64,000 bases of DNA from Thermoplasmata archaeon (GCA_014894395.1 JADBLO010000051.1:4641-68640), one strand, 5' to 3'. Shown: positions 3,468 to 60,751, numbered from the stretch's first letter. Notes: generated by a model not told the origin, from the letters alone. A program made the numbers and translations.

Positions 3468-6257
3468 CTATGATTTCACGACGCCGACCGGTTTTTTAGG
3501 ATTTTTTTTTGCTGTTTTCCCACTATCTTTTTCATCGGAATCGTTGATTTTTTTGCCGCTCTCAAGGGTTCCATCGGTGAGCCCTTCATCAAGGAGAACA
3601 TCATACTCCACCTTGTATTCACCAGGGTCACCCTCTGAGAACTTGAAGTTTTTCTCTCGGCATAACGCAATCATCGGGTAATTATCCTTCAGGACGACAC
3701 CGTTGACCTTTGTCAAGTTCTTATCTTTCGCGATTTCAATGAGGTAATCCAGGAACTCAGAGCCGAGTCCTTGTCGCTGCCATTCATCTGTAACAACCAG
3801 CGCGAATTCTGCTTCATCAACTCGTGCAGGATCAAGAATAAGCCGAGCAACGCCAAGCAGTCGCTTTTTCCCGTTTTCCTCCATTTCAGCAACAATCCCA
3901 ATTTCCCTGTCGTAATCGATATTACAAAATCTCGTACGAACCTCATGGGGCGTGTCTTTGATAATTCTGAAAAATCGGAATCGCACGGTTTCTTCAGAGA
4001 ACGTCTTGAACATCTCCAGCCACATGTTTTCATCCTCTGGTTTTATCGGGCGGAGCAAAGCTTTCTTTCCATCTTTTAGTGTGATAGGTTTCATGTACTT
4101 GGTCGGATATGGTGTAATGATGAGATGCGGATGTTTCTCTGGCTCAGGATCAAGGATTATCCGCGCGTCCACCGCAATGAGATCATTTCCCTGCGGAATC
4201 AATGGGTTGATATCAACTTCTTTAATCTCAGGATGATCGATAAGCATCTGTGAAAACTTAATCATGGTTTCTTCGACTTTCTTCATATCAACAGGCGGGA
4301 CGTTCCTGAATCCTTTCAAAAGCTCATAGGCTTTTGTTTTTTCTATGATACGCTGTGCCAAGGTCTGGTTCAGAGGTGGAAACCCGATCGCTCGATCCTT
4401 AAACAACTCCGTGTAGATACCACCTAACCCAAAGAGAATCACCGAACCAAACACCGGGTCTTTTTTCGACCCAAGAATCAGTTCATACCCATAGTTCTTC
4501 ACCTGCTTCTGAATTGTTACTCCAAGAATCGTCGCATTCGGGACCTTTTCTTTCGCCTGTTTCGTCATCGCTCTGAATGCTGTTTTAACATCATCGCCAC
4601 AGCGTAAATCAAGGACGACACCACCGACATCACTTTTATGGCTAATCTGAGGAGATAATATCTTCATCACGATAGGGTACCCGATTTTCTCTGCTGCTTT
4701 CACTGCTTTGTTTTCATTTTCTGCAATCATCGGTGTTGCCGTAGTAATCCCATAGAGTTCTAGAAATGTCTTTGCTTCACTCTCATTGAGCAGGGTTCTT
4801 TTCTCTTTGGCTGCCGCATCTAAGATTTTTTTGATTATCTCTGTATGAGCCGGGGTTTGTATGTTTAACTCCTCAGGAGTCTCATATAATTGACCTAAGT
4901 GACGTTCATAATGATACAAATACATATAGGATTCAACCGCTTCATCAGGCGACGCGTAGGTTGGGATATTGTTCCGGTTTAGGATTTCTCGTGCGTGATA
5001 CACACTTGCCGCACCGATAAATGAGGTGAGAATTGGTTTGGTTGATTTACGGGCAATATCAACAAGCCGGTCTGCAAGTTTCTGCGGGTCAGCCATCACC
5101 TGTGGGACACACAAGATTAACAGACCATCGATGTTTTTATCCTCAAGACAAATCTCAATTGCTTTCTGATAACGCTCCTCGTCACCATCTCCGATGATGT
5201 CAACAGGGTTGCCATGACTCCAATGTGACGGCAACACTTTATTGAGTTTTTCTATAGTTTCCGCAGACAACTGTGCAAGCTTACCACCTTTCTCGATGAT
5301 TGAATCCGTGGCAAGAACACCAGGTCCTCCAGCATTGGTCACAATCGCAATGTTCGGTCCCATCGGACGCGGTTGTTTCGCAAGAATAGAGGAGCAATTG
5401 AATAAATCCATGATATTCATAACACGGACAACACCAGATCTTCGGAATGCAGCATCATAGATGACGTCTTCACCGGCAAGAGCTCCTGTATGGGACGCGG
5501 CTGCTTTTGCTCCTTCTTTGAACCGACCGGATTTAATCACAATAATCGGTTTTGCGCGCGCGAACGCTTTCGTCGCACTCATGAACTTCCGTGCATCTGT
5601 AATCGATTCGATATACAGAACAATGCTTCGGGTGTGAATGTCCATCCCAAAGTAATCAATTAAATCACCGAAATCAACATCTAGCATAGAGCCAACAGAG
5701 ACGAACGAACTAAAACCGACCTTTGCCGCCGCAGCCCAGTCAAGGATCGCACCACACACCGCACCACTCTGAGAAACCAATGCAATAGACCCTTTCTCTG
5801 GCATGGAACCTGCAAATGTCGCATTCAAATTCAGGTACGGCATGATGAAACCGACACAATTTGGACCGATGATACGCAACTCATATTTTTTCTTCAGATC
5901 TAACAGACGCTGTTCACGTGCGACACCCTCAGGCCCGATTTCCTTAAATCCAGCAGAAATAATGAGAATACCTTTGATGCCTCGTATCCCACATTGTTCG
6001 ACAACATCGCAAACAACAGTTGCTGGTGTTGCAATAATCGCCAGATCAACAACTTTAGGAACCTCATTGATGGATGGATAAGCTTGTACTCCTTGAACAC
6101 TTTCTCGTTTTGAATTCACTGGGAAAACAACACCATCATACCCAGATCCTATCAGATTTCGAAAAATCCTGTATCCAGCTGAGCCGATGGTTTCGCTTGC
6201 GCCAATCACTGCGATACTTTTTGGTTTGAAGACTTTATCAAGATTTGCACCATTCAT
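3468..6257 (-). CDS. ADP-forming acetyl-CoA synthetase (fused alpha/beta, NDP-forming acyl-CoA synthetase family) with C-terminal GNAT acetyltransferase domain (Pat-like architecture)
   Basis: N-terminal CoA-binding domain (SIAVIGASETIGSAGYRIF), CoA-ligase domain with phosphohistidine motif AAASHTGALAG, and ATP-grasp with SPQISHKSDVGGV. C-terminal GNAT with the acetyl-CoA motif WQRQGLGSEFL. Start placed at MNGANLDKV (6257), which has GGAGGGA 7 nt upstream; the longer ORF to 6314 has no RBS. Confidence 0.85.
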   Translation of the reverse strand: MNGANLDKVFKPKSIAVIGASETIGSAGYRIFRNLIGSGYDGVVFPVNSKRESVQGVQAYPSINEVPKVVDLAIIATPATVVCDVVEQCGIRGIKGILIISAGFKEIGPEGVAREQRLLDLKKKYELRIIGPNCVGFIMPYLNLNATFAGSMPEKGSIALVSQSGAVCGAILDWAAAAKVGFSSFVSVGSMLDVDFGDLIDYFGMDIHTRSIVLYIESITDARKFMSATKAFARAKPIIVIKSGRFKEGAKAAASHTGALAGEDVIYDAAFRRSGVVRVMNIMDLFNCSSILAKQPRPMGPNIAIVTNAGGPGVLATDSIIEKGGKLAQLSAETIEKLNKVLPSHWSHGNPVDIIGDGDEERYQKAIEICLEDKNIDGLLILCVPQVMADPQKLADRLVDIARKSTKPILTSFIGAASVYHAREILNRNNIPTYASPDEAVESYMYLYHYERHLGQLYETPEELNIQTPAHTEIIKKILDAAAKEKRTLLNESEAKTFLELYGITTATPMIAENENKAVKAAEKIGYPIVMKILSPQISHKSDVGGVVLDLRCGDDVKTAFRAMTKQAKEKVPNATILGVTIQKQVKNYGYELILGSKKDPVFGSVILFGLGGIYTELFKDRAIGFPPLNQTLAQRIIEKTKAYELLKGFRNVPPVDMKKVEETMIKFSQMLIDHPEIKEVDINPLIPQGNDLIAVDARIILDPEPEKHPHLIITPYPTKYMKPITLKDGKKALLRPIKPEDENMWLEMFKTFSEETVRFRFFRIIKDTPHEVRTRFCNIDYDREIGIVAEMEENGKKRLLGVARLILDPARVDEAEFALVVTDEWQRQGLGSEFLDYLIEIAKDKNLTKVNGVVLKDNYPMIALCREKNFKFSEGDPGEYKVEYDVLLDEGLTDGTLESGKKINDSDEKDSGKTAKKNPKKPVGVVKS

Positions 6258-6311
6258 TGTGCCTCCCTCCATAGAATGAGCTGTAGAGCACCGAAACGAG
6301 GAAAGTAGAAT

Positions 6312-6326
6312 CAATTATATAAGAGT
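6312..6326 (-). promoter_or_regulatory. candidate archaeal TATA box (TTATATAA) for the ACD-GNAT gene
   Basis: On the minus strand TCTTATATAATTG lies about 55-60 nt upstream of the ATG at 6257 and just downstream of the PFOR terminator T-run. Confidence 0.3.
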
Positions 6327-36248: not shown

Positions 36249-36338
36249 CTGCTATCCATCTCCTACAACAGGTAAATCAGCATCCAGGATAAATAGATTT
36301 TCCCTGGCTGAATAAAAATAACAACAAAGACAACCTTT

Positions 36339-37289
36339 ATGTCCCATAGCGATATTCAGGACAAAAATCCGGGTTTTATCACTATGGAAAAAACACTTCA
36401 ACAACAGATACAGGAATTAAAAAAGAAACGCCATGCAGTGATCCTTGCACATAACTATCAAAACCCGGAAATCCAGGATGTCGCTGATTTTGTTGGAGAC
36501 TCCCTTGACTTATCCTTAAAAGCAACCAAAACAGATGCGAAAACCATCGTTTTCTGCGGCGTTGATTTCATGGCAGAGGCAGCAAAGATTTTAAATCCTG
36601 AGAAAACCGTGATTCTTCCCGATAAAACCGCGAACTGCCCGATGGCAGAGATGGTGGATGCGGAAAGTCTGAGTTGGCTTATCAAAGAACATCCTGACGC
36701 AGAAGTAGTCGCTTATATTAATACGACAGCGGACGTCAAAACATTAGCTGATATCTGCTGCACTTCTGCAAATGGAGTCAGAATTGTGAAAAGCAGAACT
36801 GCGAAAAAAATCATTTTTATCCCTGACCGGAACCTTGGACTATATATCCAGAAACAGGTTCCAGAAAAAGAGATGATCCTCTGGCCAGGAGTCTGTCGCA
36901 CCCACCATGATATCAAAAAAGAAGATATCGTAGTGTTAAAGAAGAAACATCCGCATGCTGAAATCCTTGTTCATCCTGAGTGTCAACCTGAAATTATCGA
37001 GTTTGCAGACTACGTCTTTTCAACCAACGGAATGGTCAATCATGCGAAGACATCACCGATAAAAGAGTTTATCATTGGTACGGAAAAAGGGCTCTGTTAC
37101 CGGTTGGAGAAGGAAAACCCCGGGAAGAAATTCTATCCGGTTCCCACAGCAATATGCCCAAATATGAAAAAAACTACGCTAGAAAAAGTATTAAAAAGCA
37201 TGGAGACTTTGGAACCGAAGATAAACCTCTCGGATGAAATTATGCAGAAGGCACGTGTGCCATTACAACGTATGATGGAAATAGAGTGA
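36339..37289 (+). CDS. nadA: quinolinate synthase NadA
   Basis: ILAHNYQNPEIQDVADFVGDSL and three-Cys Fe-S pattern. The ATG at 36384 (MEKTLQQQ) is a possible true start. Confidence 0.85.
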   Translation: MSHSDIQDKNPGFITMEKTLQQQIQELKKKRHAVILAHNYQNPEIQDVADFVGDSLDLSLKATKTDAKTIVFCGVDFMAEAAKILNPEKTVILPDKTANCPMAEMVDAESLSWLIKEHPDAEVVAYINTTADVKTLADICCTSANGVRIVKSRTAKKIIFIPDRNLGLYIQKQVPEKEMILWPGVCRTHHDIKKEDIVVLKKKHPHAEILVHPECQPEIIEFADYVFSTNGMVNHAKTSPIKEFIIGTEKGLCYRLEKENPGKKFYPVPTAICPNMKKTTLEKVLKSMETLEPKINLSDEIMQKARVPLQRMMEIE

Positions 37290-37300
37290 GGCGAAAAACT

Positions 37301-38470
37301 ATGAAGCGAGTTTTCATGGATAACGCATCCACCACGAAAGTCGATCCTGAAGTACTTAATACGATGCTTCCATATTTCACGGAATACTATGGGAATCCCT
37401 CGTCAATCCATGCATTTGGACGAGAAGCGCGAAAAGCAGTCGATACCGCAAGAACACACGTCGGTGATTTACTTGGTGCCAAGGACGATGAAATTATTTT
37501 TACCGCTGGCGGAACCGAATCAGATAACCTTGCCATCAAAGGAGTGGCCTATCTGAACAAAGATAAAAGAACGACCAAAGGGCCGCATATCATCACCTCG
37601 ACAATAGAACATCCGGGAGTTCTTGAGACCTGCCGACATCTTGAAACACAAGGATTCCAAGTGAAATATCTTCCGGTCGATAAGGATGGGATCGTCAACC
37701 CTGAAGAGCTTCAGAAATCGATTTCGAAAAACACGTTTCTTATCACCATCATGTTTGCGAACAACGAAATTGGTACCATTCAACCAATCGAGGAAATCGG
37801 GAAGATCGCCCATAAACATGATATCATCTTCCATACCGATGCAGTACAAGCGGTTGCAAAGCTTCCTATTGACGTGAAGAAACAACATATCGATTTGCTT
37901 GCGTTATCTTCCCATAAAATCTATGGGCCAAAAGGAATAGGAGCGCTCTATATTCGAAATGGAGTCAAGGTCCAGCCAATTATTCATGGAGGGGGACATG
38001 AGAAAGGGGTACGGAGCAGTACCCTTAATGTTCCTGGTATCGTTGGTCTGGGAAAAGCATGTGACCTTGCAGAAAAACGAATGACAAAAGATATTCCTTA
38101 TATGAAAACACTACGCGATCTCCTCATAAAAAATACATTACAGATTGAAGAAAGCCATTTGAATGGTCATCCTGAGAAACGTCTGGTGAACAACGCACAT
38201 TTCAGATTCACGGGGATTGAAGGAGAATCCATCCTCCTCGGATTAGATGAGCAGGGAATTGCGACATCGACAGGATCTGCATGCTCTTCTCAGAAACTTC
38301 AAGCATCTCATGTGCTCCTTGCGATAGGGTTAGACCCGGTACAGGCACATGGATCACTTCGGATGTCTCTTGGACGAGAGAACACCAAAGAAGAAGTTAC
38401 CTATGTCTCCAAAATAATCCCTCAGATTGTAGAGAAACTACGAATGATGTCTCCCTTGTGGAACCGGTAG
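37301..38470 (+). CDS. iscS: cysteine desulfurase (NifS/IscS class V aminotransferase)
   Basis: MKRVFMDNASTTKVDPEV N-terminus, SSHKIYGPKGIGALY PLP-Lys motif, and active-site Cys in SACSS. GAGG upstream. Confidence 0.85.
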   Translation: MKRVFMDNASTTKVDPEVLNTMLPYFTEYYGNPSSIHAFGREARKAVDTARTHVGDLLGAKDDEIIFTAGGTESDNLAIKGVAYLNKDKRTTKGPHIITSTIEHPGVLETCRHLETQGFQVKYLPVDKDGIVNPEELQKSISKNTFLITIMFANNEIGTIQPIEEIGKIAHKHDIIFHTDAVQAVAKLPIDVKKQHIDLLALSSHKIYGPKGIGALYIRNGVKVQPIIHGGGHEKGVRSSTLNVPGIVGLGKACDLAEKRMTKDIPYMKTLRDLLIKNTLQIEESHLNGHPEKRLVNNAHFRFTGIEGESILLGLDEQGIATSTGSACSSQKLQASHVLLAIGLDPVQAHGSLRMSLGRENTKEEVTYVSKIIPQIVEKLRMMSPLWNR

Positions 38471-38473
38471 GAT

Positions 38474-39169
38474 ATGAAGAAAAAAAAAGCGGTTTGTTTG
38501 ATCTCGGGTGGTCTTGATTCTGCTGTGACTGCTTTTATCGCAAAAAAACAGGGGTACGACCTGTATGCGCTGTCGTTTCGCTATGGGCAACGTCATACAA
38601 AAGAGCTTTCATGCGCAAAGAAGATTACGAAAGCAGTAGGCGTAAAGGATCATATTATTTTTAATATTGATCTTCAAAAATTTGGTGGATCTTCTCTTCT
38701 TATCTCCTCGTCGTATCAGATTAAAAATCATGCGTTAAATGATATTGGAAAAACGATCCCATCAACGTATGTTCCAGCGCGAAATACAGTTTTTCTTTCA
38801 CTCGCACTCGCGTATGCCGAAGCCATTGACGCGGTTGCAATCTTTATTGGCGCAAATGCCGTGGATTACTCAGCGTATCCTGATTGCAGACCAAATTACA
38901 TTCGAGCGTATCAGCATCTAGCTAATCTTGCAACAAAGCGTGGAGTGGAAGGAAAACCGATTCGCATCAATGCACCGCTCTTACATCTCACAAAAGCTGA
39001 GATTATTAAAACAGGCGTGAAATTGAATGTTCCTTTTGCGAAGACTTGGTCGTGTTATCGAGGAGAAGTCAAGGCGTGTGGTCAGTGTGATTCCTGTCTC
39101 CTCCGCCTTAAAGGTTTTCAGGAAGCGGAAGTAAAAGATCCTATACCTTACAAAACTATTCCGGATTGA
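38474..39169 (+). CDS. queC: 7-cyano-7-deazaguanine synthase QueC
   Basis: PP-loop SGGLDS and C-terminal zinc motif CGQCDSCLLR. Confidence 0.85.
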   Translation: MKKKKAVCLISGGLDSAVTAFIAKKQGYDLYALSFRYGQRHTKELSCAKKITKAVGVKDHIIFNIDLQKFGGSSLLISSSYQIKNHALNDIGKTIPSTYVPARNTVFLSLALAYAEAIDAVAIFIGANAVDYSAYPDCRPNYIRAYQHLANLATKRGVEGKPIRINAPLLHLTKAEIIKTGVKLNVPFAKTWSCYRGEVKACGQCDSCLLRLKGFQEAEVKDPIPYKTIPD

Positions 39170-39494
39170 TATCTTAAATAATGCAACTAGTGCACCTTGG
39201 CATAGAATAATTCTAATATAACATTTCTTCAGTGATTTTTCATAAATTTTCACATCACTTTTATTCTCATTTTATTTTTGAAGAATCCTATAAATTCTAT
39301 ACTTATCAGCTCTGTACAATATAATTCTATACTTCTCTTTACAGTAAAAAGTAGTAACAAACGAAAATAATTAGTCTCTGTAAGCGGCAAATTCTATTAT
39401 TGTGACAGGAGAGAAAAAAAGGGAATCCCTTCGGTATGATTCGAGTTCGCTGTAGGAAAATTTATTAATACGTGACAACTCTTTTATAGTTAGT

Positions 39495-41948
39495 ATGGTG
39501 AGAGAGAAAAAAAATAAAATATTTAATATTGAGAAATTACATGAGCTTATAGATAGCGCAGCTCTCCCTAAACACAACAATACTTCGTCGTATAATGATA
39601 AAAACCTCGAATCTTTACTAAATCGATTATCTGATGAACCATCAAAAAGCAACAAAAAAGTAACATCATCTAATTTAATACATCCAAAATCTGAGAGTTT
39701 AACACCACGAACTGTTGTCCATAAACGAGAAGATATTCAGAAAAAAGAAGAAAGAGTTATTCAGATAGAACTAGGACCAAAGGCAATAAAAAAACAAAAA
39801 GAACATGCTATCGTGGGCCTTGTTTCTCCAAGGGGGGATCTTTTTACTGAAGAATCTCTTTACGAGATTGAAAAGATTGCGTTTCTAGAAGAAGAACCTG
39901 TGGAAGTGAAACCAACAGATATTTCGAAAGAATCAGAGATTCAACAAGAATTCATTCAAGTGGTATCCGACTGGGAGCATAAAGAGAAACATCTTCCTGA
40001 ATGGGAACCAGTGACAAAGGAAATAACTGAAAAAGAAATTGTTGAGGTTAAAAAAGGAAAGTCAATTGAGACGTTTCTTCCTGAGTTTGAACGAGTTGAT
40101 GAAAAACAGTCACCGTTACCATCCCGTTCTCCTGAAAAAGAAAGCAGAATACATTCATTTGAACCAGTGAAATTTGAAGCAGTCAGGGAGGAGAAACAAC
40201 AGGTGGAACGATCAGAGGTACGAGCGAAGGAGAAAGCAGAATCACTACGCAAGAAACAGGAAGAAAAACAAGCACGACAAGAAACAAAGGAGAAAGAACA
40301 GGAAGCAAAAAGACAAGCAAAAGAACATGATAAGAAATTACAGCAAGAACGGTTACAGATCCAAAATGAACAACGAGAGGAACAGAAACGCAAAGAATTG
40401 GAGAAGAAAAAAGCATCTGCTGAGGCAAAAGAAAAAGACCTAGAAGAACAACGTCTAATAAAAGAACGCAAAGAGAAACTACGATTAGACCGATTGGAAT
40501 TACAGAAGAAGGAGAAAGCAGAATCACTACGCAAGAAACAGGAAGAAAAACAAGCACGACAAGAAACAAAGGAGAAAGAACAGGAAGCAAAAAGACAAGC
40601 AAAAGAACATGATAAGAAATTACAGCAAGAACGGTTACAGATCCAAAATGAACAACGAGAGGAACAGAAACGCAAAGAATTGGAGAAGAAAAAAGCATCT
40701 GCTGAGGCAAAAGAAAAAGACCTAGAAGAACAACGTCTAATAAAAGAACGCAAAGAGAAACTACGATTAGACCGATTGGAATTACAGAAGAAGGAGAAAG
40801 AAAAACAAAAGCCGAGGAAGTCAGAAAAAGAAAAGAAATCATTTGTTACAGCCTCAGTTGACCAAAAGAAGTCAGCTCGAGTGGAAACAACGAATGTTGG
40901 AGCTGCTCGGATTAAACAAAAGCAGATTCGTAAGAAACCTTTACCCGCCCAAAAGGAAGAACAACCGATGGTTTCCGCCTGGGAGACACTCAGTGAAGAG
41001 ACTCATAAAGAAGATGCTGGTGACATGCCTACCGAACCAAAAGAACCGTTTGCACATGAAACGATTGAGCTTATTTCAAAGGAGAAAGAACGAGAACAGA
41101 AGCGTATTGAGAAGGAACAGAATGAAAAAAAGCAGCTAGAACGATTGGAGGTAAAGAGGAAAGAGAAAGAGGAATTGAAACGAAAGAAGTTGCAGGAGAA
41201 GCAGCGGGCGGATCTATTTGCGTTAAAGAAGGAAGACAAAGAGCAAAGGAAACAAAAGAATTTGGAGGAGAAACAAGCAAAAAAGGAAGCGAAGGAGAGG
41301 GAGCTGGAGGAGGAAAAACGTGCAAAGGCGGAACTGAAATCGAAGCAGCGTATACTTGCTTTAAAAGAGCTCGAATGGAGGACGAAGGAGAAAGACGAAC
41401 AAAAACTGAAGGAACTTGAGCAGAAGGAGGAGAAGAAGCGTTTAAGTGAACTTGGTATTGTTGGAACAGCAAAGGAAACAGGATTAATAGACGAACGGAA
41501 AAAGGCAGAGGAACAGAAACAGATAAATGACGTAGTAAGAATTGCTGCGGAGGTAAAAGAACAACGAAAACTTAAGACTTTTGAACGTAAGAGGCAGAAA
41601 GAACGGAAAAAAACAGAGAAAGAAGATCAGAAATTAAAAGCGATTGAAGAAAAGAAAGCCAGGAAGAAAATGAATCTACATTTAGAAGAAGAAGTAATCA
41701 AGGAAAAACTTTCTGGTCAAGTAGAACGAATTGACATCTTCGTCGGATTTGATAGTATTGATCAAGAGACCGCAGATCTTCTCTTAAAATGTGGATATAC
41801 CTCAGTAGAAAAGTTACGGGAAGCAAACGTAAAGGACCTCATAAAAATTGGATTAAAGAAAAAAACCGCGCAGATGATACTTGCTGAAAGTGGAGAATTT
41901 GTCGAATGGGAAGTGTATGATGCTGATGAACATCTTGAGAAAATCTGA
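39495..41948 (+). CDS. K/E/R/Q-rich (ER/K-type, predicted long helical) protein with internal exact tandem duplication and C-terminal (HhH)2 domain
   Basis: 817 aa. The central roughly 500 aa is low-complexity and charged (KEKEQEAKRQAKE...). A 94-aa unit is repeated exactly twice. The C-terminus IFVGFDSIDQETADLLLKCGYTSVEKLREANVKDLIKIGLKKKTAQMIL has an (HhH)2 pattern. Confidence 0.7.
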   Translation: MVREKKNKIFNIEKLHELIDSAALPKHNNTSSYNDKNLESLLNRLSDEPSKSNKKVTSSNLIHPKSESLTPRTVVHKREDIQKKEERVIQIELGPKAIKKQKEHAIVGLVSPRGDLFTEESLYEIEKIAFLEEEPVEVKPTDISKESEIQQEFIQVVSDWEHKEKHLPEWEPVTKEITEKEIVEVKKGKSIETFLPEFERVDEKQSPLPSRSPEKESRIHSFEPVKFEAVREEKQQVERSEVRAKEKAESLRKKQEEKQARQETKEKEQEAKRQAKEHDKKLQQERLQIQNEQREEQKRKELEKKKASAEAKEKDLEEQRLIKERKEKLRLDRLELQKKEKAESLRKKQEEKQARQETKEKEQEAKRQAKEHDKKLQQERLQIQNEQREEQKRKELEKKKASAEAKEKDLEEQRLIKERKEKLRLDRLELQKKEKEKQKPRKSEKEKKSFVTASVDQKKSARVETTNVGAARIKQKQIRKKPLPAQKEEQPMVSAWETLSEETHKEDAGDMPTEPKEPFAHETIELISKEKEREQKRIEKEQNEKKQLERLEVKRKEKEELKRKKLQEKQRADLFALKKEDKEQRKQKNLEEKQAKKEAKERELEEEKRAKAELKSKQRILALKELEWRTKEKDEQKLKELEQKEEKKRLSELGIVGTAKETGLIDERKKAEEQKQINDVVRIAAEVKEQRKLKTFERKRQKERKKTEKEDQKLKAIEEKKARKKMNLHLEEEVIKEKLSGQVERIDIFVGFDSIDQETADLLLKCGYTSVEKLREANVKDLIKIGLKKKTAQMILAESGEFVEWEVYDADEHLEKI
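40227..40790. repeat. perfect 2 x 282-bp in-frame tandem direct repeat inside the K/E-rich gene
   Basis: A unit beginning AAGGAGAAAGCAGAATCACTACGCAAGAAACAGG recurs identically 282 bp later. The repeat boundary is ambiguous by about 10 nt. Confidence 0.85.
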
Positions 41949-42308
41949 TACACCACTCTGAACCTATAGAGGTTTCACCTGATATAAAAAGAGGGACCAC
42001 CACCCTTTAGAAGAGCAAATGAAATCGAGATTGTAATAAATTTGTTGCACACTAATACCATAATAAATATTATTCTTTTTTCAATAGTATTTTTGTTTTT
42101 CATTACCGTTGATATTTCTGTATAGGTTTAGATAAATTCGTAAATTTCAGAGATATAAATATTTTATTTTCAGAGAAACGAATGTAAAAAAAGACACACT
42201 TAAAATGATAGAAACGATATTCATAAAATGATCCATTATCATATCTATCCATTCGCTGTAAAAAATAGAAGCACGAGTAAAAAGACAGAGAACGGCATTA
42301 CTGACTGT

Positions 42309-43145
42309 TCAATTCGACCCTTGCTCCGGTTTCTTCCGCTTTTTTAGATAATCATATACATCAAGGATAATCGGTATTGAAACAAGAATCGCTATCACGA
42401 TTCCAAGACAAATCATACTATCCTCATGAACATTCCCAACCGTATTTTTCCCATGAAGAACATCCTCAAAAAAGAGATTAATAGTCCCAAGCCAGGGAAT
42501 CTCGAATCGTGCTTTTCCCGATACCCAATCTAATTGAACAGGCTCAGGGCAGATATCAGTGATCTCGTCAATCACCTCATTATTATCTCCCTTTGTGAGA
42601 AAACCTGAGTGAGTCCATCCTGGATCACGATTATACAACCCTAACTGAGGAATAGTAAGACTTGTTGCATTGTCAATTCCATAGTCTACGATAGTATAGG
42701 TGGTCTGACCATTTTTATTGTACACGTCAACCCAACACATCGCCCGATGAATAATCTGCGACACATCTGTTCGTCCCAGAGGTTTATAGATAATCACGTC
42801 ACCGTAATCACCATAGGATCGCCAGCCATTCTCCGCTTCAGCGCCTTTGATAAGGCCACCATGCGGGACAATATCGCTCACCTTCGAGACCTTCTGCACC
42901 AGAACCATATCGCCCGCATCGATCGTACCCAACCGACCAAACGGAGAATTCGGATGCTCCATACTCCCAGACTCAATCGCAACCATAGGGGCGGCAAACC
43001 ATTGCCCCGTATACCCCCATAAAATCATCAAAATAACAAACACCGCAAGCAATGCGATAACCACATCTCGAACAATCGAAACCTTATTGTTGTCGCTTTT
43101 CCAAAACTGGATAAACATTTTTTTGATGTTCATGGGCTCACACAA
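42309..43145 (-). CDS. signal peptidase I (archaeal/eukaryal Sec11-type, S26B)
   Basis: Catalytic Ser box IESGSMEH, N- and C-terminal TM segments, 278 aa. Confidence 0.7.
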   Translation of the reverse strand: MCEPMNIKKMFIQFWKSDNNKVSIVRDVVIALLAVFVILMILWGYTGQWFAAPMVAIESGSMEHPNSPFGRLGTIDAGDMVLVQKVSKVSDIVPHGGLIKGAEAENGWRSYGDYGDVIIYKPLGRTDVSQIIHRAMCWVDVYNKNGQTTYTIVDYGIDNATSLTIPQLGLYNRDPGWTHSGFLTKGDNNEVIDEITDICPEPVQLDWVSGKARFEIPWLGTINLFFEDVLHGKNTVGNVHEDSMICLGIVIAILVSIPIILDVYDYLKKRKKPEQGSN

Positions 43146-43661
43146 TCATAGGTTTTTTTTATGTAGCAGTGAACTTTTTGTTATTGTTCCACAGATAGGG
43201 CAGATTTTTGTTATTTCGTTAAATTGTTTTTTGCACCCTGGACAACGAGAGACCCATTTAAACTTTTTTGTTATTCCTTTCTGCGAAAACCCCTGAAATT
43301 TGATTTGCAATGTCGATGCAACATTTTGAATTGAATAATCATCGGTAAGAATCGTCGCTTCTTGGTCAGGTTCTTTGTTGATATCAATTGCTAACGCCAC
43401 AACTTCAACATCTGCAAAAGAAAGCCTGCGGTCATCGCCGGTCTCTTGTGCTGTTTTTTTCACACGATTTATTGCTTCTTTTGATGGTTCGTGAATCGCA
43501 AGACCTGTTTCCTTGAGTAACTCGAATGTACGGAAGTCTCGTCCACCAGGGCTCAATTCGTCAGAAACAGCGGGTGTTGTGACTATTGATACATTATCAA
43601 AACGAATTGGTCTTCCTGAAAGAATCGCAGAGGTATCGATAATAAAAACTTGTTTTTTCAT
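43146..43661 (-). CDS. nob1: Nob1 endonuclease homolog (PIN domain + C-terminal zinc ribbon)
   Basis: PIN motif FIIDTSAI..D, C-terminal CPGCKK...CPICG; 171 aa. Confidence 0.75.
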   Translation of the reverse strand: MKKQVFIIDTSAILSGRPIRFDNVSIVTTPAVSDELSPGGRDFRTFELLKETGLAIHEPSKEAINRVKKTAQETGDDRRLSFADVEVVALAIDINKEPDQEATILTDDYSIQNVASTLQIKFQGFSQKGITKKFKWVSRCPGCKKQFNEITKICPICGTITKSSLLHKKNL

Positions 43662-43679
43662 AGGAAATCCTATCGCAGG

Positions 43680-44948
43680 TTAGGTTTTTTTGAGTTTTGC
43701 ACAAATCTCTGTTATAGATACTATTTCTTGATTTCCGATTTTCATGTCTCGCAGGGTGACGGTTTTTTTCTCAAGTTCTTTTGGTCCAACGATGATGACT
43801 TTTTCTACATGTTTTGAGTCAGCGTATTTTAAGGATTTCCCTATACCTCGTCGGAGCTGATCGAAATCAACAGAGAATCCTTGGCTTCGTAATTGTTGAG
43901 CAATCTCAATGGATGTACAGATCATATCCTGGTTTACTGGGATGATGTACACATCGAGTTTTAATGGAGGGAATATAAACCCTTCCGCTTCAAGAGCAAG
44001 GATTGTTCGGTCAAACCCAATCGCAAAACCAGAGGTCGGGACTTCGGTACCGCCAAACAAGGAAACAAGCTCGTATGAACCTCCGCCGCAGAGTTGTTTT
44101 TCTGCTCCAAGAACGGGTGCATCGATTTCAAACACTAAACCTTTGTAATAATCAAGTCCTCGTACAATGCTTAATTTTATTCCGTACTCGGTGACATGAA
44201 ATGCATTTTTCAGTAAACCAAGGATTGTTTCCATGGCGGCAAGCTCTTTTACCGCATCAGGATCGTCAGCGATAAATGATCGAATCTCATTGACTTCTGA
44301 TGTCTGAAGAACCCTAATGAACGTTTCTGCATCTTTCCCAGAAACACCACAATCCCGAAGAGACACTTTCAGATCATCAAACTGTGACTTATCGATCAAT
44401 GGCAAGAGTATTTTCTGATCATCTTTAAGGAGATTTAATCTCTTAAAAATGGCACTGATGATCGTGAGATTCCCAATGTTAATTCGAACGTTTTTCAACC
44501 CGACATTTTTTAAAAGGGTAAATGCGAGTGCGAGTAATTCTGCAGCTGCTTCTGAGGTTTCTACCCCGATGACCTCACAACCTGCTTGTTGAAACTCCCG
44601 GTACCTTCCTTTCTGTGGTCGGTCGTACCGATAGCAGTTCCCAAAGTAAAACAACTTGAGTGGTTTTGGCTCCATCTGTAACCGCTCGACATAACAACGG
44701 ATCACTGGAGCAGTAAGCTCTGGTCGTAACGCAAGCTCCCGTCCCCCTTTATCAGTAAACGCATATAATTCATTAACAATAGATTCACCAGATTTCGCGG
44801 TGAAAAGTTCTAAGTTCTCAAAGGTCGGTGTCTGGATTTCCCCGTACCCAAATGAGGTAAACGTCGCAGCCATGTTCTGTTCGATATAGCGACGTTTCTC
44901 CATTTCCTCTGGAGTAAAATCTCTGGTTCCTCGTGGTACCTGAAACAT
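43680..44948 (-). CDS. hisS: histidine--tRNA ligase
   Basis: MFQVPRGTRDFTPEE class II aaRS HisRS motifs, 422 aa. Confidence 0.9.
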   Translation of the reverse strand: MFQVPRGTRDFTPEEMEKRRYIEQNMAATFTSFGYGEIQTPTFENLELFTAKSGESIVNELYAFTDKGGRELALRPELTAPVIRCYVERLQMEPKPLKLFYFGNCYRYDRPQKGRYREFQQAGCEVIGVETSEAAAELLALAFTLLKNVGLKNVRINIGNLTIISAIFKRLNLLKDDQKILLPLIDKSQFDDLKVSLRDCGVSGKDAETFIRVLQTSEVNEIRSFIADDPDAVKELAAMETILGLLKNAFHVTEYGIKLSIVRGLDYYKGLVFEIDAPVLGAEKQLCGGGSYELVSLFGGTEVPTSGFAIGFDRTILALEAEGFIFPPLKLDVYIIPVNQDMICTSIEIAQQLRSQGFSVDFDQLRRGIGKSLKYADSKHVEKVIIVGPKELEKKTVTLRDMKIGNQEIVSITEICAKLKKT

Positions 44949-45185
44949 GAGGAGTCGTATAGTAGGAATTCCTTAATTATGTTTCTCTCTTAACAAACGA
45001 GGAAAGATGGTTTGTGTCGTATTTTGAAATTCCGAATATTCACCATTCATATAGAAAGTGGCTCCTACAAATCCGATCATACGCCAGGAGAAATTGGTCG
45101 CAGAAGCATACAGTGTAACATAAAAGAGGCAAAAACTTCTTTTAGCAGTATTTGTTACACCTCATGAATTTCTCGTACAACGAGG

Positions 45186-54095: not shown

Positions 54096-54542
54096 ATGCC
54101 GAAATATTCAGCTGAGAAAGACCTAGAAAAAAGCGCACGAGCCTATGGATATGAACTGCACTGTTCTCAGAAAGATTCCATGAACATTGCACATGCGTTA
54201 CGAGGAATGACTGTTGAAGCGGCAAAGAAGTACCTCGAAGAAGTCATCGTTATGAAACGGGCACTCCCTGCGATTTACCATAAGAAGAAACGACCGCATC
54301 AAAAAGGAATCGGCCCAGGGAGTTTCCCAGAGAAAGCAGCCCGGTACATGTTAAAGGTAGTCGAGAACGCAGAGAACAATGCGGAATATAAAGGCTTTGA
54401 CGTTGAAAAAATGAAAATTACACATATCTCCGCATATCAAGGCAGAATCATCAAAGGAATGATGCCACGAGCGCATGGCAGAGCGACCGATAAGAATGAA
54501 ACCACGACCAATGTCGAAATTATTCTTGAAGAGGTAGAGTAA
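54096..54542 (+). CDS. rpl22: ribosomal protein L22 (uL22)
   Basis: Archaeal L22/L17e pattern; operon position. Confidence 0.9.
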   Translation: MPKYSAEKDLEKSARAYGYELHCSQKDSMNIAHALRGMTVEAAKKYLEEVIVMKRALPAIYHKKKRPHQKGIGPGSFPEKAARYMLKVVENAENNAEYKGFDVEKMKITHISAYQGRIIKGMMPRAHGRATDKNETTTNVEIILEEVE

Positions 54543-55417
54543 TGGCAAATGAACGCAAGTTTATTAGAGAGAATGCCAAGCGATCGTTGATCAAGAAGTT
54601 TCTCGTCAAAGAAATCGAAGGCGCAGGTTTTGGCGGCATGAACATCCAACGGACCCCGATTGGAACCAGAGTCAACCTCCTTGTCGAGCGACCAGGAATG
54701 GTAATTGGGAAGGGTGGTGCAAAAATAAAAGAACTTACAGATTCGATTCGTACCAAATTTAATGTTGATAACCCGCAAATTGAAATACAGGAAGCAGGGT
54801 CAAGTGCATCCTTAAACGCTCAAATCATGGCAGAGAAACTGGCTGAAGCACTGGAGCGAGGATGGCATTTCAGACGCGCAGGGCACTCTACTGTACGACG
54901 GATAATGCAATCAGGTGCAAAAGGCTGCCAAGTCATTCTCGCAGGGAAACTAACCGGAGAACGACACCGAACAGAGAAATTCACTGAAGGGCATGTGAAA
55001 TATTGCGGTGAACCCGCAAAAGAAGTCATGGATATCGGCCTAGCAACCGCGAAACTCAAACCCGGAGTTCTTGGAGTTAAAGTAAGAATCATGAGACCAG
55101 ACGCGAAACTGCCCGATGAAATTACGTATAAACTTGCAGCAAAAGAGGAAATAAAACCAGAAATAAAAATCGAAGCAAAACCACCAGAGCCGAAACTAGA
55201 GAAAAAAACCGATATTAAACTCATTACAAAGATTCAAGGAATTGGGCCATCCGTCTTGAAAAAACTGGAGAAAGCAAAGATCACCTCACTTGAAGAATTA
55301 TACACCATGAACCTTGATGATCTCATTGCAATCGATGGCATCGGCAATAAAACCGCTGAATTGATAGTGAAAAACATTAGAAAATTACTAGAAGAGGGTA
55401 CCAAAAATGGTTCTTAA
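54542..55417 (+). CDS. rps3: ribosomal protein S3 (uS3) with K/E-rich linker and C-terminal (HhH)2 extension
   Basis: KH domain GKGGAKIKELTD. The C-terminal about 90 aa contains IQGIGPSVLKKL and IDGIGNKTAELI HhH motifs. Confidence 0.9.
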   Translation: MANERKFIRENAKRSLIKKFLVKEIEGAGFGGMNIQRTPIGTRVNLLVERPGMVIGKGGAKIKELTDSIRTKFNVDNPQIEIQEAGSSASLNAQIMAEKLAEALERGWHFRRAGHSTVRRIMQSGAKGCQVILAGKLTGERHRTEKFTEGHVKYCGEPAKEVMDIGLATAKLKPGVLGVKVRIMRPDAKLPDEITYKLAAKEEIKPEIKIEAKPPEPKLEKKTDIKLITKIQGIGPSVLKKLEKAKITSLEELYTMNLDDLIAIDGIGNKTAELIVKNIRKLLEEGTKNGS

Positions 55418-56966: not shown

Positions 56967-57635
56967 GTGAGTGATATGATATCAATAAAACCAAGAAAAC
57001 AACGATACATGCTCTATAACGCACCTCTTCATAAAAAGAGAAAATGGATTTCTTCGCATCTCGCAGAGAACCTTCTGTTGAAATATGACCGACGCAGTCT
57101 GCCAGTTGTGAAAGGAGACACGGTTAAAGTCATGCGTGGAAACTACCGGGGGCATGAGGATAAAATCTCAAAAGTCAACGTACGAGACCAGACCGTGGAA
57201 ATTGAAGGAGTCACTATCACCACTGCGAAAGGAACAAAGATAGCCAAACCAATCCACGCAAGTACTTTGCTTATTACTAAATTAAATATTACTGATAAAT
57301 GGCGACGGCAGAAACTGGAGAGCGGACTCTCGGAGACAACGAAGAAAGAAATCGAAAAAGAAGCAGCAGAACAACTCAAGGTACATAAGGCTGAACAGAA
57401 AGCAGAAGAGGAAGCAGCGAAAGCAGAAGAAAAACAAAAAGAAGAGACAAAAGAACCCCTCAAAGAAGAGGTAACTACGGAGCTTCCTGAAAAAACCGTA
57501 GAACCAGCTGTAAAAGAAGAAATACCGGAAGAAAAAGTCGAAGAGAAGAGCACTGAACCGCCGAAAAAGAAACCAGCAACAAAAAAACCTACTACTAAAA
57601 CCACAAAAAAGAAAAAAGAAGAAGGTGAAACATGA
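56967..57635 (+). CDS. rpl24: ribosomal protein L24 (uL24) with about 100-aa K/E/A-rich C-terminal tail
   Basis: KOW motif VVKGDTVKVMRGNYRGHEDKISKV. The C-terminal half is low-complexity KAEQKAEEEAAKAEEKQKEE...KKKPATKKPTTK. Confidence 0.9.
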   Translation: MSDMISIKPRKQRYMLYNAPLHKKRKWISSHLAENLLLKYDRRSLPVVKGDTVKVMRGNYRGHEDKISKVNVRDQTVEIEGVTITTAKGTKIAKPIHASTLLITKLNITDKWRRQKLESGLSETTKKEIEKEAAEQLKVHKAEQKAEEEAAKAEEKQKEETKEPLKEEVTTELPEKTVEPAVKEEIPEEKVEEKSTEPPKKKPATKKPTTKTTKKKKEEGET

Positions 57636-58348
57636 GCAAACACCTGAAAAGACTCGCAGCACCGCGAGTATTACGACTCCATCGAAAAGAACGAGCATTC
57701 ACGATTCGTGCCGCACCAGGCCCACATCCGTTAGAGCTAGCTATTCCCCTTGGGTTAGTCATACGAGATTACCTTAGTTTATGCGACACATATAAAGAAG
57801 CACGAAAAATCGTGTCCAATGGAGATATCCTCGTTGATGGAGTAAAACGAAAGAACATCAAATTCCCTTGCGGACTCATGGATGTCATCTCCATTCCTAA
57901 AATGCGTAAGAATGTTCGAATCCTCTTTGATCGAAACGGGAAACTCACCCTCGTACCAATCTCAGAAAGCGATGCAGAATGGAAACTCTGCCGTATACAA
58001 AACAAAACGATAGTGAAAGGAAAGAAAGTGCAGCTCAACCTCCACGACGGCAAAAACAAACTCGTAGAGAAAGACGAATACAAAACCGGAGATGTCCTAA
58101 AAATTTCTTTCAAGGAAAATAAAATCGATGATGTGTATAGGTTTGACAAAGGAACCGTGTCGATGATCATTGGTGGAACGCACATTGGAGAGATTGCGAG
58201 TATCGACGAAATTCAGGTTGTTACTTCGTCAAAACCCAATCTTGCAAAAATGAAAGGAGAAAAAGAATTTTCCACCATCGCAGAGCATGTGTTCCCCATT
58301 GGGAAAACCAAGCCGGCTATAGCACTTCCTGAGGTGAAAATGCAATGA
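57632..58348 (+). CDS. rps4e: ribosomal protein S4e (eS4)
   Basis: MSKHLKRLAAPR N-terminus, 238 aa. Confidence 0.95.
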   Translation: MSKHLKRLAAPRVLRLHRKERAFTIRAAPGPHPLELAIPLGLVIRDYLSLCDTYKEARKIVSNGDILVDGVKRKNIKFPCGLMDVISIPKMRKNVRILFDRNGKLTLVPISESDAEWKLCRIQNKTIVKGKKVQLNLHDGKNKLVEKDEYKTGDVLKISFKENKIDDVYRFDKGTVSMIIGGTHIGEIASIDEIQVVTSSKPNLAKMKGEKEFSTIAEHVFPIGKTKPAIALPEVKMQ

Positions 58349-58935
58349 GCACGAAGAAAGCAGCTGCACCAAAAACTCATAAAACAACAACGCGTCAGAA
58401 AAAATCTGCTACAAAGAAAAAAGAAGAAAAAAAATCTATGAAGCCACGCATCGCAAAAGTGACTGTTAATATAGGTGTTGGCGAATCAGGTGAAAAACTC
58501 AAGAAAGCAGAATCGGTTTTAGAGGGTGTCACCAAACAAAAACCAATTCAAACCCTTTCAAAAACAACCAACAAAGACTGGAGTCTGCGGAAATTCATGC
58601 CGATTGGCTGCAAAGTCACGTTACGAAAGAAAGCTGCAGAGACATTTTTAATAAACGCGTTAAAAATCCGGGAGAATAAAATCTCAGAATACTCATTTGA
58701 CAATCAAGGGAATTTCTCATTTGGAGTACCGGATCATACCCTCTTTGAGGGACAGAAGTACGATCCAAATATCGGGATCTTTGGTATGGATATCTGTGTC
58801 ACCGTGGAAAACCCCGGGTACCGGATTAAACATCGCCGAATTGACCAACGGAAAATCCCGCAGCGGCATCGACTCACCAAAGAAGCAACTATGCAATTTA
58901 TTACCGAAGCATTTAACGTAGAGGTCGTAGAATGA
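58345..58935 (+). CDS. rpl5: ribosomal protein L5 (uL5) with K-rich N-terminal extension
   Basis: [17 protein letters not shown] core, plus a 30-aa KK-rich N-terminus. Confidence 0.9.
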
Positions 58936-60049: not shown

Positions 60050-60751
60050 ATGACAAAAGAAGCTGTTCTAAAAGAATTCGAGGCATTGAAAGGTGTCGGG
60101 AAAGCAAAAGCGAAACTCCTCTACGATAACGGATTCGATTCCATGGATAAACTGAAAAAAGCAAAGATAAAAGATCTTACAAAACTGAAAGGAATAACAG
60201 AGAAAAACGCCAATGAAATCCTTGGTCAAATCAAAGAGAAAAAAGAAAAACCAGTGAAAAAAACACCAGAAAAAAAAGACGAAGAAGAAACAAAAGAGAA
60301 GAAAGCAGATGACGTTGAAATCGTTGACCAAAAAGAAGGAGCCTACAAACCAAAGATTAAACCACAGTTAAACAAGAAAGAGAAAGAGCAACTGGTAATT
60401 AGACGACAAATCAAAAAGCGAACCCCGCATTTCCTGAGAGACGAAGGATTCCGATACAAACGTATCCCGAAGAACTGGCGACGCCCTACAGGGTATACTT
60501 CAAAACTACGCATTAACTTGAAGTATCGACCAAGTAAAGTACGCGTAGGTTTCCGCGGACCAAAGATGGTCCGTGGATTACACCCGTCTGGTTTTGAAGA
60601 AGTGATGATTCACACGGTTAAAGAACTTGAGACGATTGATCCGAAGAAACAGGCGGTGCGCATTGGCGGCACCGTTGGCACGAAGAAACGTCTAGAGATT
60701 GCGAAACGAGCCGATGAATTAGATATAAGAGTTTTAAACATGAGGAAGTGA
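60050..60751 (+). CDS. rpl32e: ribosomal protein L32e (eL32) with N-terminal (HhH)2 + K/E linker
   Basis: Core RRQIKKRTPHFLRDEGFRYKRIPKNWRRP. N-terminal LKGVGKAKAKLL...LKGITEKNANEI HhH pair. Confidence 0.9.
   Translation: MTKEAVLKEFEALKGVGKAKAKLLYDNGFDSMDKLKKAKIKDLTKLKGITEKNANEILGQIKEKKEKPVKKTPEKKDEEETKEKKADDVEIVDQKEGAYKPKIKPQLNKKEKEQLVIRRQIKKRTPHFLRDEGFRYKRIPKNWRRPTGYTSKLRINLKYRPSKVRVGFRGPKMVRGLHPSGFEEVMIHTVKELETIDPKKQAVRIGGTVGTKKRLEIAKRADELDIRVLNMRK

Follow-up and report, generated by a model that had tools for sequence, protein, structure and literature searches.

The 64,000-nt stretch of DNA analysed here (the window; Thermoplasmata archaeon, GCA_014894395.1 JADBLO010000051.1:4641-68640) encodes on its plus strand a protein of 817 aa (39495..41948; ATG start, 97.3 kDa, pI 9.2; E 19.5%, K 18.8%, Q 7.3%, R 7.0%) that contains a conserved N-terminal motif module, three long predicted charged helices built in part from an exact tandem duplication, and a C-terminal helix-hairpin-helix ((HhH)2) domain. 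The coding sequence is supported by 34 homologues, among which the N-terminal start MVRE(K/R)K is conserved, and by a ratio of nonsynonymous to synonymous substitution rates (dN/dS) of 0.33 against the orthologue L002. A TATA-like sequence, TTTATTAATA (39461-39470, plus strand), was read directly ~29 nt 5' of the ATG and suggests, judging by archaeal TATA spacing, a promoter giving a leaderless transcript with a predicted start at 39495. As described in the original prediction, the gene is isolated by AT-rich non-coding flanks, comprising 325 bp upstream (39170..39494, plus strand; GC 0.29-0.34) and 360 bp downstream (41949..42308), where a convergent gene ends; GC ranges from 0.27 to 0.34 over both flanks, compared with ~0.42 in the neighbouring genes. 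Two antisense open reading frames (ORFs; 39956..40753 and 40183..40842, minus strand) are rich in Ser, Phe, Cys and Leu and were rejected as by-products of the purine-rich repeat strand, since it is the plus frame that has homologues and a dN/dS below 1. No signal peptide or transmembrane segment was identified in the 817-aa protein, and Rfam and tRNA scans of the window gave no match. The protein likewise had no match in a phage genome collection, PHROGs or PADLOC, and a phage or defence origin was rejected.

The exact 282-bp tandem duplication that had first drawn attention to the gene was borne out. Tandem Repeats Finder reported a period of 282 with 2.0 copies, 100% matches and 0 indels at 40226-40800, together with an older 141-bp periodicity with 63% matches, and a base-by-base check found identity at offset 282 over 293 consecutive bases from 40226. 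The two units (40226..40507 and 40508..40789, both on the plus strand; 282 bp or 94 codons, 100% identical) encode residues 248-341 and 342-435, and each 94-aa unit divides into two 47-aa half-units with 41% mutual identity. An 11-nt microhomology, GAAGGAGAAAG, begins each unit and recurs at 40790..40800 (plus strand) as the start of a third copy; slippage or unequal exchange probably takes place at these unit borders. The duplication creates a new junction, ...GGAATTACAGAA|GAAGGAGAAAGCAGAATCAC (unit-to-unit junction sequence GGAATTACAGAAGAAGGAGAAAGCAGAATCAC), which is missing from a one-copy allele. Furthermore, a degenerate copy of the repeat unit was identified at residues 528-633 (62.8 bits versus at most 49.3 bits for shuffled sequence).

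Comparison of repeat number among orthologues showed that the locus is an in-frame variable-number tandem repeat (VNTR). Near-identical alleles carry 1, 1.5, 2 or 4 units, in three allele pairs the sequence outside the indel is identical or 93% identical, and all repeat-region indels between alleles are in frame. The nearest relatives (83-89% identity) encode proteins of 723-724 aa, which is one unit shorter than the window protein (817 - 94). P0004 (770 aa), assembled on 3 contigs, equals P0002 at 723/723 residues and has an extra chimeric 47-aa half-unit. In a lineage 53% identical, P0008 equals P0010 at 754/754 residues and has its own 94-aa duplication, the DNA copies of which are 93% identical, and P0009 and P0007 differ in length by 47 aa. 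The orthologous locus L010, located on a 260-kb contig and collinear with window positions 36300-45000 at ~92-93% nt identity, contains an array of 4.0 units at 98%.

Of the three explanations initially offered for the exact identity of the two copies (a very recent duplication, a copy-number-variable locus or an assembly artefact), variability is therefore established by the 1-4 units in relatives, and the artefact required separate consideration. Under this explanation, a de Bruijn loop was traversed too often or a chimeric contig was formed, and the gene really has one unit like its 723-aa relatives. This would fit the 100% identity of the two copies, whereas orthologous units differ by ~10%, and it would also fit a locus that is troublesome to assemble. 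Metagenomic assemblies often break or frameshift in the K/E repeat region: the ends of four GTDB contigs (L007, L009, L014 and L021) lie within the gene, its frame is frameshifted or N-masked in three loci (L008, L010 and L019), and many database proteins are fragments of 228-325 aa ending in the repeat, with P0035-P0043 among the truncated entries. However, a loop would need reads containing ...GGAATTACAGAA|GAAGGAGAAAGCAGAATCAC, and an assembler cannot invent a duplication without such junction reads, because a one-copy allele has no unit-to-unit junction. At this one site, independent assemblies carry 1.5, 2 and 4 copies, which are diverged and hence resolvable (93% identical in L001, 127/135 in L002 and 98% among the 4 copies on the 260-kb contig of L010), and the 1.5-unit allele of P0004 was recovered on 3 contigs. 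Collapse of repeats, not their expansion, is moreover the usual assembly artefact. Given the independent alleles, a pure artefact is unlikely; part of the population probably does carry two or more copies, although the exact number is not certifiable from sequence. Lengths derived from metagenome-assembled genomes (MAGs) at a repeat locus that breaks or frameshifts so many assemblies are not to be trusted without long reads.

An AlphaFold2 run with a 30-sequence alignment (mean predicted local distance difference test score, pLDDT, 64.8) predicted residues 1-245 to be disordered except for helices at 12-21 and 36-46, followed by a helix at 246-437, a disordered segment at 438-520, helices at 521-653 and 664-740 with pLDDT of ~80-90, and a small helical domain at 757-801. 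Charged helix 1 (246-437; 40230..40805, plus strand; 192 aa, pLDDT 70-91) holds the duplicated units and would measure ~29 nm if straight, computed at 0.15 nm per residue. Helix 2 (521-653; 41055..41453, plus strand; 133 aa, ~20 nm) begins with the degenerate repeat copy, and helix 3 (664-740; 41484..41714, plus strand) comprises 77 aa or ~11.5 nm. The flexible linker between helices 1 and 2 (438-520; 40806..41054, plus strand; 83 aa, pLDDT below 50) contains Pro and Gly and a W-E-[ST] motif conserved in alignment A1 (VSAWETLSEE, 492-501); in Pfam it had only a sub-threshold match to DUF5819 (E 0.002, 19.2 bits versus a cut-off of 27.1). K, E, R, Q, A and L make up 79% of residues 231-740 and 74-90% of the three helices, so the almost pure K/E/R/Q/A/L stretch of about 500 aa in the original prediction holds as to charged nature and is generous as to length, ~400 aa split by the linker being the better figure. 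The overall charge layout comprises an acidic head, basic rods (net +31, pI 9.6) and an acidic tail.

The three helices contain 57-62% K/R/E/D, 12-22% hydrophobic residues (61% and 12%, respectively, in helix 1) and no Pro or Gly. Opposite-charge pairs at i/i+3,4 occur at 0.36-0.45 per residue and are enriched relative to shuffles (z 1.2-2.1), and same-charge pairs at i/i+4 are depleted, with z reaching -3.25 in helix 1. Hydrophobic occupancy of heptad positions a/d did not exceed 0.5 in any 28-residue window in any register (maxima 0.38-0.50, with 0.38 in helix 1), and no 3.5-residue periodicity was detected in the charged helices. An E/K/R-rich segment of at least 40 aa with opposite-charge pairs and no hydrophobic seam, as is characteristic of ER/K single alpha-helices (SAHs), is thus present. 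Since ~60% of residues are charged, hydrophobic residues are few, a heptad seam is lacking and charges pair at i/i+3,4, the predicted helices look like ER/K-type SAHs rather than coiled coils, and may behave as such in solution. Alternatively, the protein might be a coiled-coil, filament-forming cytoskeletal or scaffold protein comparable to intermediate filaments or SMC, as could be suggested by the long unbroken predicted helices, by Leu clusters such as LRLDRLEL, which occurs once per unit, and by the distant member P0108 with its Q/T/L-rich, coiled-coil-looking central region. Yet a/d occupancy in the best register averages 0.23-0.38, power at period 3.5 is ~0.02-0.16, and the hydrophobic content lies below the ~29% or more that a heptad seam requires. 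The heptad and periodicity tests reject a canonical coiled coil, the second of the two structures originally proposed for this region, and we consider a filament-forming protein very unlikely; the first, a single helix, is retained on the basis of composition and AlphaFold2.

The rods are also more than the spacer of the original prediction. They carry the near-invariant residues R367, L368, K370, E371, H372 and D373, which form the motif EAKRxAKEHDxKL with one copy per 94-aa unit, and their dN/dS against L002 is 0.24-0.38. The same K/E module was identified in a protein of another kind. P0031 (L006 8001-11027; also P0034), a type II/IV secretion-type ATPase (PF00437) of ~1000 aa from a related metagenome, has an N-terminal extension that holds three 47-aa half-units plus a second half and shows 85.8% nt identity over 386 nt to the repeat of L002. 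The module has thus moved as a cassette between two unrelated genes.

The C-terminal (HhH)2 domain (745-801; 41727..41897, plus strand) was identified with Pfam HHH_5 (PF14520; residues 755-798, 27.8 bits versus a gathering score of 27), AlphaFold2 and Foldseek, and thereby passed the HhH profile search on which the original prediction had staked this assignment. It is followed by an acidic-aromatic tail (41895..41945, plus strand; E-F-V-E-W-E-V-Y-D-A-D-E-H...), in which F802, E804 and W805 are subfamily-invariant. A profile of 24 orthologous C-termini matched acidic repeat 1 (AR1) of NusA (E 3.5e-6), the RadA N-terminus (1.4e-3) and SAM domains. A separate AlphaFold2 model of the C-terminus has four helices with a core pLDDT of ~80, and Foldseek aligned it with probability 1.0 to NusA AR1 (1wcl, root-mean-square deviation 2.0 A over 57 columns), the RadA/Rad51 N-terminus (1.2-1.5 A), AF1548-C (0.8 A) and Hjm (in the 0.8-2.0 A range), with weak E-values (at least 0.04), the domain being small.

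The proposed kinship with the appendages of ribosomal proteins S3 and L32e was confirmed, as all three domains belong to HHH_5 and the window domain is 42% identical to that of S3 over 43 aa and 35% identical to that of L32e over 51 aa (pairwise E 2e-8). S3 (54542-55417, plus strand) carries its canonical (HhH)2 at the C-terminus (residues 227-281, 45.2 bits), and L32e (60050-60751, plus strand) carries one at the N-terminus (residues 9-62, 44.8 bits) that is joined by a K/E-rich linker to the L32e core. These appendages have canonical hairpins (GVG, GIG) and scores of ~45 bits, whereas the lower-scoring window domain lacks the first glycine hairpin and its host is not a ribosomal protein.

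The DNA-binding character ascribed to the C-terminus together with its fold is less well founded. Hairpin 1 is degenerate and acidic (FDSIDQETA), with a family-invariant S-I-D in place of G-h-G and no glycine, and hairpin 2 is basic (KIGLKKKTAQ), with G-L-K providing one glycine followed by KKK; the domain therefore does not have the two G-h-G hairpins that contact the DNA backbone. Residues 741-817 have a net charge of -7 and a pI of 4.6. By both profile and fold, the best solved relative is bacterial NusA AR1/AR2, and NusA acidic-repeat domains are protein-binding HhH2 domains. The likeness extends to a degenerate acidic hairpin 1 (L-D-I-D-E-D-F-A in NusA versus F-D-S-I-D-Q-E-T-A in the window protein) and an overall acidic character. 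In contrast to NusA, the window protein is archaeal, has no N-terminal domain, S1 or KH, possesses a single copy of the domain and has a strongly basic hairpin 2 (GLKKK). We thus assign the domain to the NusA-acidic-repeat type of (HhH)2. Given the S-I-D hairpin, the net charge and NusA AR1 as best solved relative, a DNA-binding tip is doubtful and unproven. A ComEA-type DNA receptor was considered and rejected, as the N-terminus is hydrophilic (MVREKKNK...) and no HHH_3 match was found.

The N-terminal module (1-245; 39495..40229, plus strand) is mostly predicted to be disordered (pLDDT below 50 except for the two short helices) but contains conserved islands. These are helix 12-21 (IEKLHELIDS), helix 36-46, SLTPRxVVHK (69-78), VIQIELGP, DLFxxExLYEIEK (115-127), LPEWEPV (167-173), LPEFERV (195-201) and SFEPVKFE (221-228), with D20, L69, P71, F117, E124 and E126 as invariant columns. 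The original prediction had overlooked this motif module (residues 1 to ~180), and with it the loss of a basic C-terminal domain described below. An exhaustive HMM search of representatives with the N-terminal profile A3 (window protein plus homologues, residues 1-183) yielded 126 clusters at 50% identity, in all of which the module begins at residue 1 of the protein; a word-indexed search gave mostly truncated fragments. The family signature DIEKLxxIxD, SLxPxV, LYEIEK and LPEWEPV is present in the window protein. Searches of Pfam (E up to 10) and PDB profile searches gave no match to the module, nor did NCBIfam to the whole protein.

Among 76 full-length family members, HHH_5 was found in 60 (best E 8e-33), with up to three copies in some, and a few members bear Zn ribbons. 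A basic C-terminal domain of ~55 aa (YTLYKKE...GKKRTIHFFSK...LPxGYxVxVNKKTGxPYLKKK) is also present in 60 of the 76 and occurs elsewhere as a stand-alone small protein; for this domain, Pfam yielded nothing at E up to 10, and PDB profile matches were all at chance level (E at least 0.18). Aromatic-Glu motifs are a recurrent feature: 66% of the family's 253 Trp residues precede E or Q, the N-terminal module includes repeated [LI]P[EK][FW]E[PR]V-like motifs, and the window protein contains LPEWEPV, LPEFERV, SFEPV, WETL and EFVEWEV. The family plan hence comprises a ~180-aa N-terminal motif module, a charged linker, one to three (HhH)2 domains, a W-E motif and usually the basic ~55-aa domain.

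Within this undescribed, Thermoplasmatota-specific family, the window gene is, as judged by sequence comparison, a derived paralogue. Its branch has lost the basic domain, the window protein ending 16 residues past the HhH2, and has expanded the linker to ~400 aa via repeated duplication of the 47-aa module. K/E-rich residues number 330-507 in this branch versus a family median of 64, and protein length in the subfamily ranges from 690 to ~990 aa. The short paralogues (e.g. the hypothetical protein KYK21547.1 of Thermoplasmatales archaeon SM1-50) share with the window protein the N-terminal module (E to 1e-68 in close members), the S-I-D hairpin 1 and the W-E motifs. They differ from it in their linker (median 64 K/E-rich residues), in their basic ~55-aa C-terminal domain and in their position upstream of RtcB-PAC2. 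As the SM1-50 MAG encodes both the long and the short type, the two are paralogues. In at least four lineages (L023-L025, L026, L027 and L028-L029), the short paralogue is co-oriented with RtcB and lies ~55 bp upstream of it, with PAC2, phosphopantothenate synthetase (PPS) and AspRS beyond RtcB and with PyrB/PyrI and HMG-CoA reductase upstream and diverging. The window gene does not share this position, being located between QueC and the genes for a peptidase-like protein, Nob1 and HisRS. The RtcB context is accordingly a lead to RNA ligation or processing for the family and not this paralogue's own context, and a literature search returned no relevant report on an archaeal SAH+HhH protein or an RtcB-HhH link.

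A search of a 5.8-billion-protein collection, of the kind advised in the original prediction, retrieved the 34 homologues, with identity down to 33%. All are metagenomic, and the few named ones are annotated as Thermoplasmatota or Euryarchaeota archaeon 'hypothetical protein'. When one genome of each GTDB species was scanned, the gene turned up in 16 species, each represented by a Thermoplasmata/Thermoplasmatota MAG (e.g. SM1-50, M11B2D, UBA33 and UBA346). In ~30 metagenomic Thermoplasmata relatives the gene is conserved and syntenic. The order NadA-NifS-QueC > gene < peptidase-like < Nob1 (PIN_6) < HisRS recurs in loci L001-L005 and persists in orthologues as identity falls from 83% to 34%. 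The dN/dS against L002 (Nei-Gojobori) is 0.23 in the HhH end and 0.52 in the N-terminal region, and invariant residues are present in all three parts of the protein. The gene is thus a real, chromosomal and constrained gene of an uncultured Thermoplasmata lineage. The low sequence complexity, the highly variable length in the subfamily and the lack of a functional annotation anywhere might otherwise be taken to indicate a fast-evolving low-complexity ORF that has no specific function and is merely tolerated. This is extremely improbable in view of the syntenic position held down to 34% identity, dN/dS below 1 in every region, the invariant residues and the in-frame nature of every indel. Synonymous divergence (dS) from L002 is very uneven along the gene, with values of 0.07 for the N-terminal region and 0.31 for helices 1 and 3, which suggests mosaic recombination between strains.

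Based on these features, we hypothesize that the window protein is a cytoplasmic, elongated, length-variable adaptor or tether, a role to which we would give roughly even chances. The N-terminal motif array would recruit one or more partners, and the net-basic charged rods would form a semi-rigid connector, adjustable in length, that may also touch a polyanion or a partner through the EAKRxAKEHDxKL motif of each unit. At the other end, the NusA-AR-like (HhH)2 and the acidic-aromatic tail could dock on a protein, with another HhH2 domain as one candidate, or alternatively on nucleic acid via the single basic hairpin. In an array that is still unstable, recombination or slippage at short direct repeats (GAAGGAGAAAG) would add or remove 141- or 282-bp blocks in frame, so that rod length and motif number would change in quanta of 47 aa. 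Several observations weigh against this hypothesis. The HHH_5 score is barely over its threshold, the charge-pair enrichment is modest (z ~2), and the AlphaFold2 monomer models (predicted template modelling score 0.23) are also compatible with oligomeric helix bundles. The exact copy number of the source genome is not verifiable without reads, and the one-copy alleles of other short-read assemblies may in part be collapsed repeats. In addition, the gene context, with its 325- and 360-bp flanks and a convergent downstream neighbour, offers no operon partner.

A different function would place the working part of the protein in the charged helices themselves, which could run alongside nucleic acid, either RNA or DNA (for example, rRNA, ribosomes or the nucleoid), as an RNA- or ribosome-associated chaperone or coat rather than a spacer, much like the long K/E-rich extensions of eukaryotic ribosome-biogenesis factors. 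This would be consistent with rods that are net basic while the HhH end is acidic, with their position-specific conservation and dN/dS of 0.24-0.38, with a short paralogue that, in at least four lineages, immediately precedes the RNA ligase RtcB, with QueC, Nob1 and HisRS as neighbours, and with a genome that places HhH2 on S3 and L32e and a K/E/A tail on L24. Furthermore, one report (PMC5812594) describes SAH domains as protein-RNA contact surfaces. However, no RNA-binding domain was detected, the neighbours are not co-oriented operon partners, and a protein coating nucleic acid would be expected to carry more net charge than ~+0.06 per residue. We therefore regard this function as possible but somewhat unlikely.

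A more specific form of the proposed tether can be drawn by analogy. The degenerate (HhH)2 end might pair with another (HhH)2 domain, such as those that this lineage carries on S3 and L32e, much as NusA-AR2 pairs with the alpha C-terminal domain of RNA polymerase and ERCC1 with XPF, and the N-terminal motifs might hold a second machine, possibly one of RNA processing and possibly RtcB-linked, as the context of the short paralogue hints. Working distance or valency could then be tuned as strains gain or lose helix increments of 7 nm (47 aa). We consider this arrangement quite unlikely as a whole; if true, it would represent an intracellular archaeal VNTR with a mechanical read-out.

The building blocks of the protein (charged single helix, (HhH)2 and in-frame tandem repeats) are known, whereas their combination is new. 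PMC5812594 also describes SAH domains as rigid connectors or springs that occur in all three domains of life. The window rods resemble the ER/K SAHs of myosin X/VI, caldesmon and the ribosomal L9 connector in being ~60% charged and lacking a heptad seam. They differ from typical SAHs in being longer (three helices of 77-192 aa, ~400 aa in total) and in being built of a conserved 47-aa repeat whose copy number is strain-variable, and their helicity is predicted only. Strain-variable rods or rulers with in-frame repeats in bacteria and phages include TolA domain II, YscP/FliK, streptococcal alpha-C/M-like proteins and tape-measure proteins. In these as in the window protein, in-frame tandem repeats alter the length of an elongated helical segment. 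No homology to them was detected, and they belong to the envelope, secretion or the virion, whereas the window protein has neither signal peptide nor transmembrane segment and is encoded among housekeeping genes.

The family as a whole, with its 126 clusters, is undescribed; no Pfam or NCBIfam model exists for its N- and C-terminal modules, and it has no solved relative. The allele series with 1, 1.5, 2 and 4 helix modules in otherwise near-identical proteins would constitute, if the rods are true SAHs, a natural experiment on spacer length inside an archaeal cell. The window protein also offers a way to learn which partners bind the (HhH)2 appendages found on archaeal ribosomal proteins.

The convergent neighbour (42309-43145, minus strand), which is syntenic in all orthologous loci, encodes a signal-peptidase-like membrane protein of 278 aa with an ESGSMEH motif; it showed a partial, sub-threshold match to TIGR02228 (archaeal signal peptidase I; 31 bits versus a cut-off of 51.85) and no Pfam match. 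Charged extensions appear to be a habit of the source genome. L24 (Ribosomal_L26/KOW; 56967-57635, plus strand) ends in a K/E/A/T/P-rich tail of ~100 aa, and the next-but-one ribosomal protein, an L5-like protein of 196 aa (58345-58935, plus strand), has a K/T-rich N-terminal extension of ~30 aa. The window further encodes a 948-aa fusion protein (3468-6314, minus strand), in which an N-terminal part resembling ADP-forming acyl-CoA synthetases (CoA_binding_2, Succ_CoA_lig and ATP-grasp_5) is joined to a C-terminal GNAT acetyltransferase, an architecture that we take to be that of bacterial Pat-type protein acetyltransferases, here in an archaeon.

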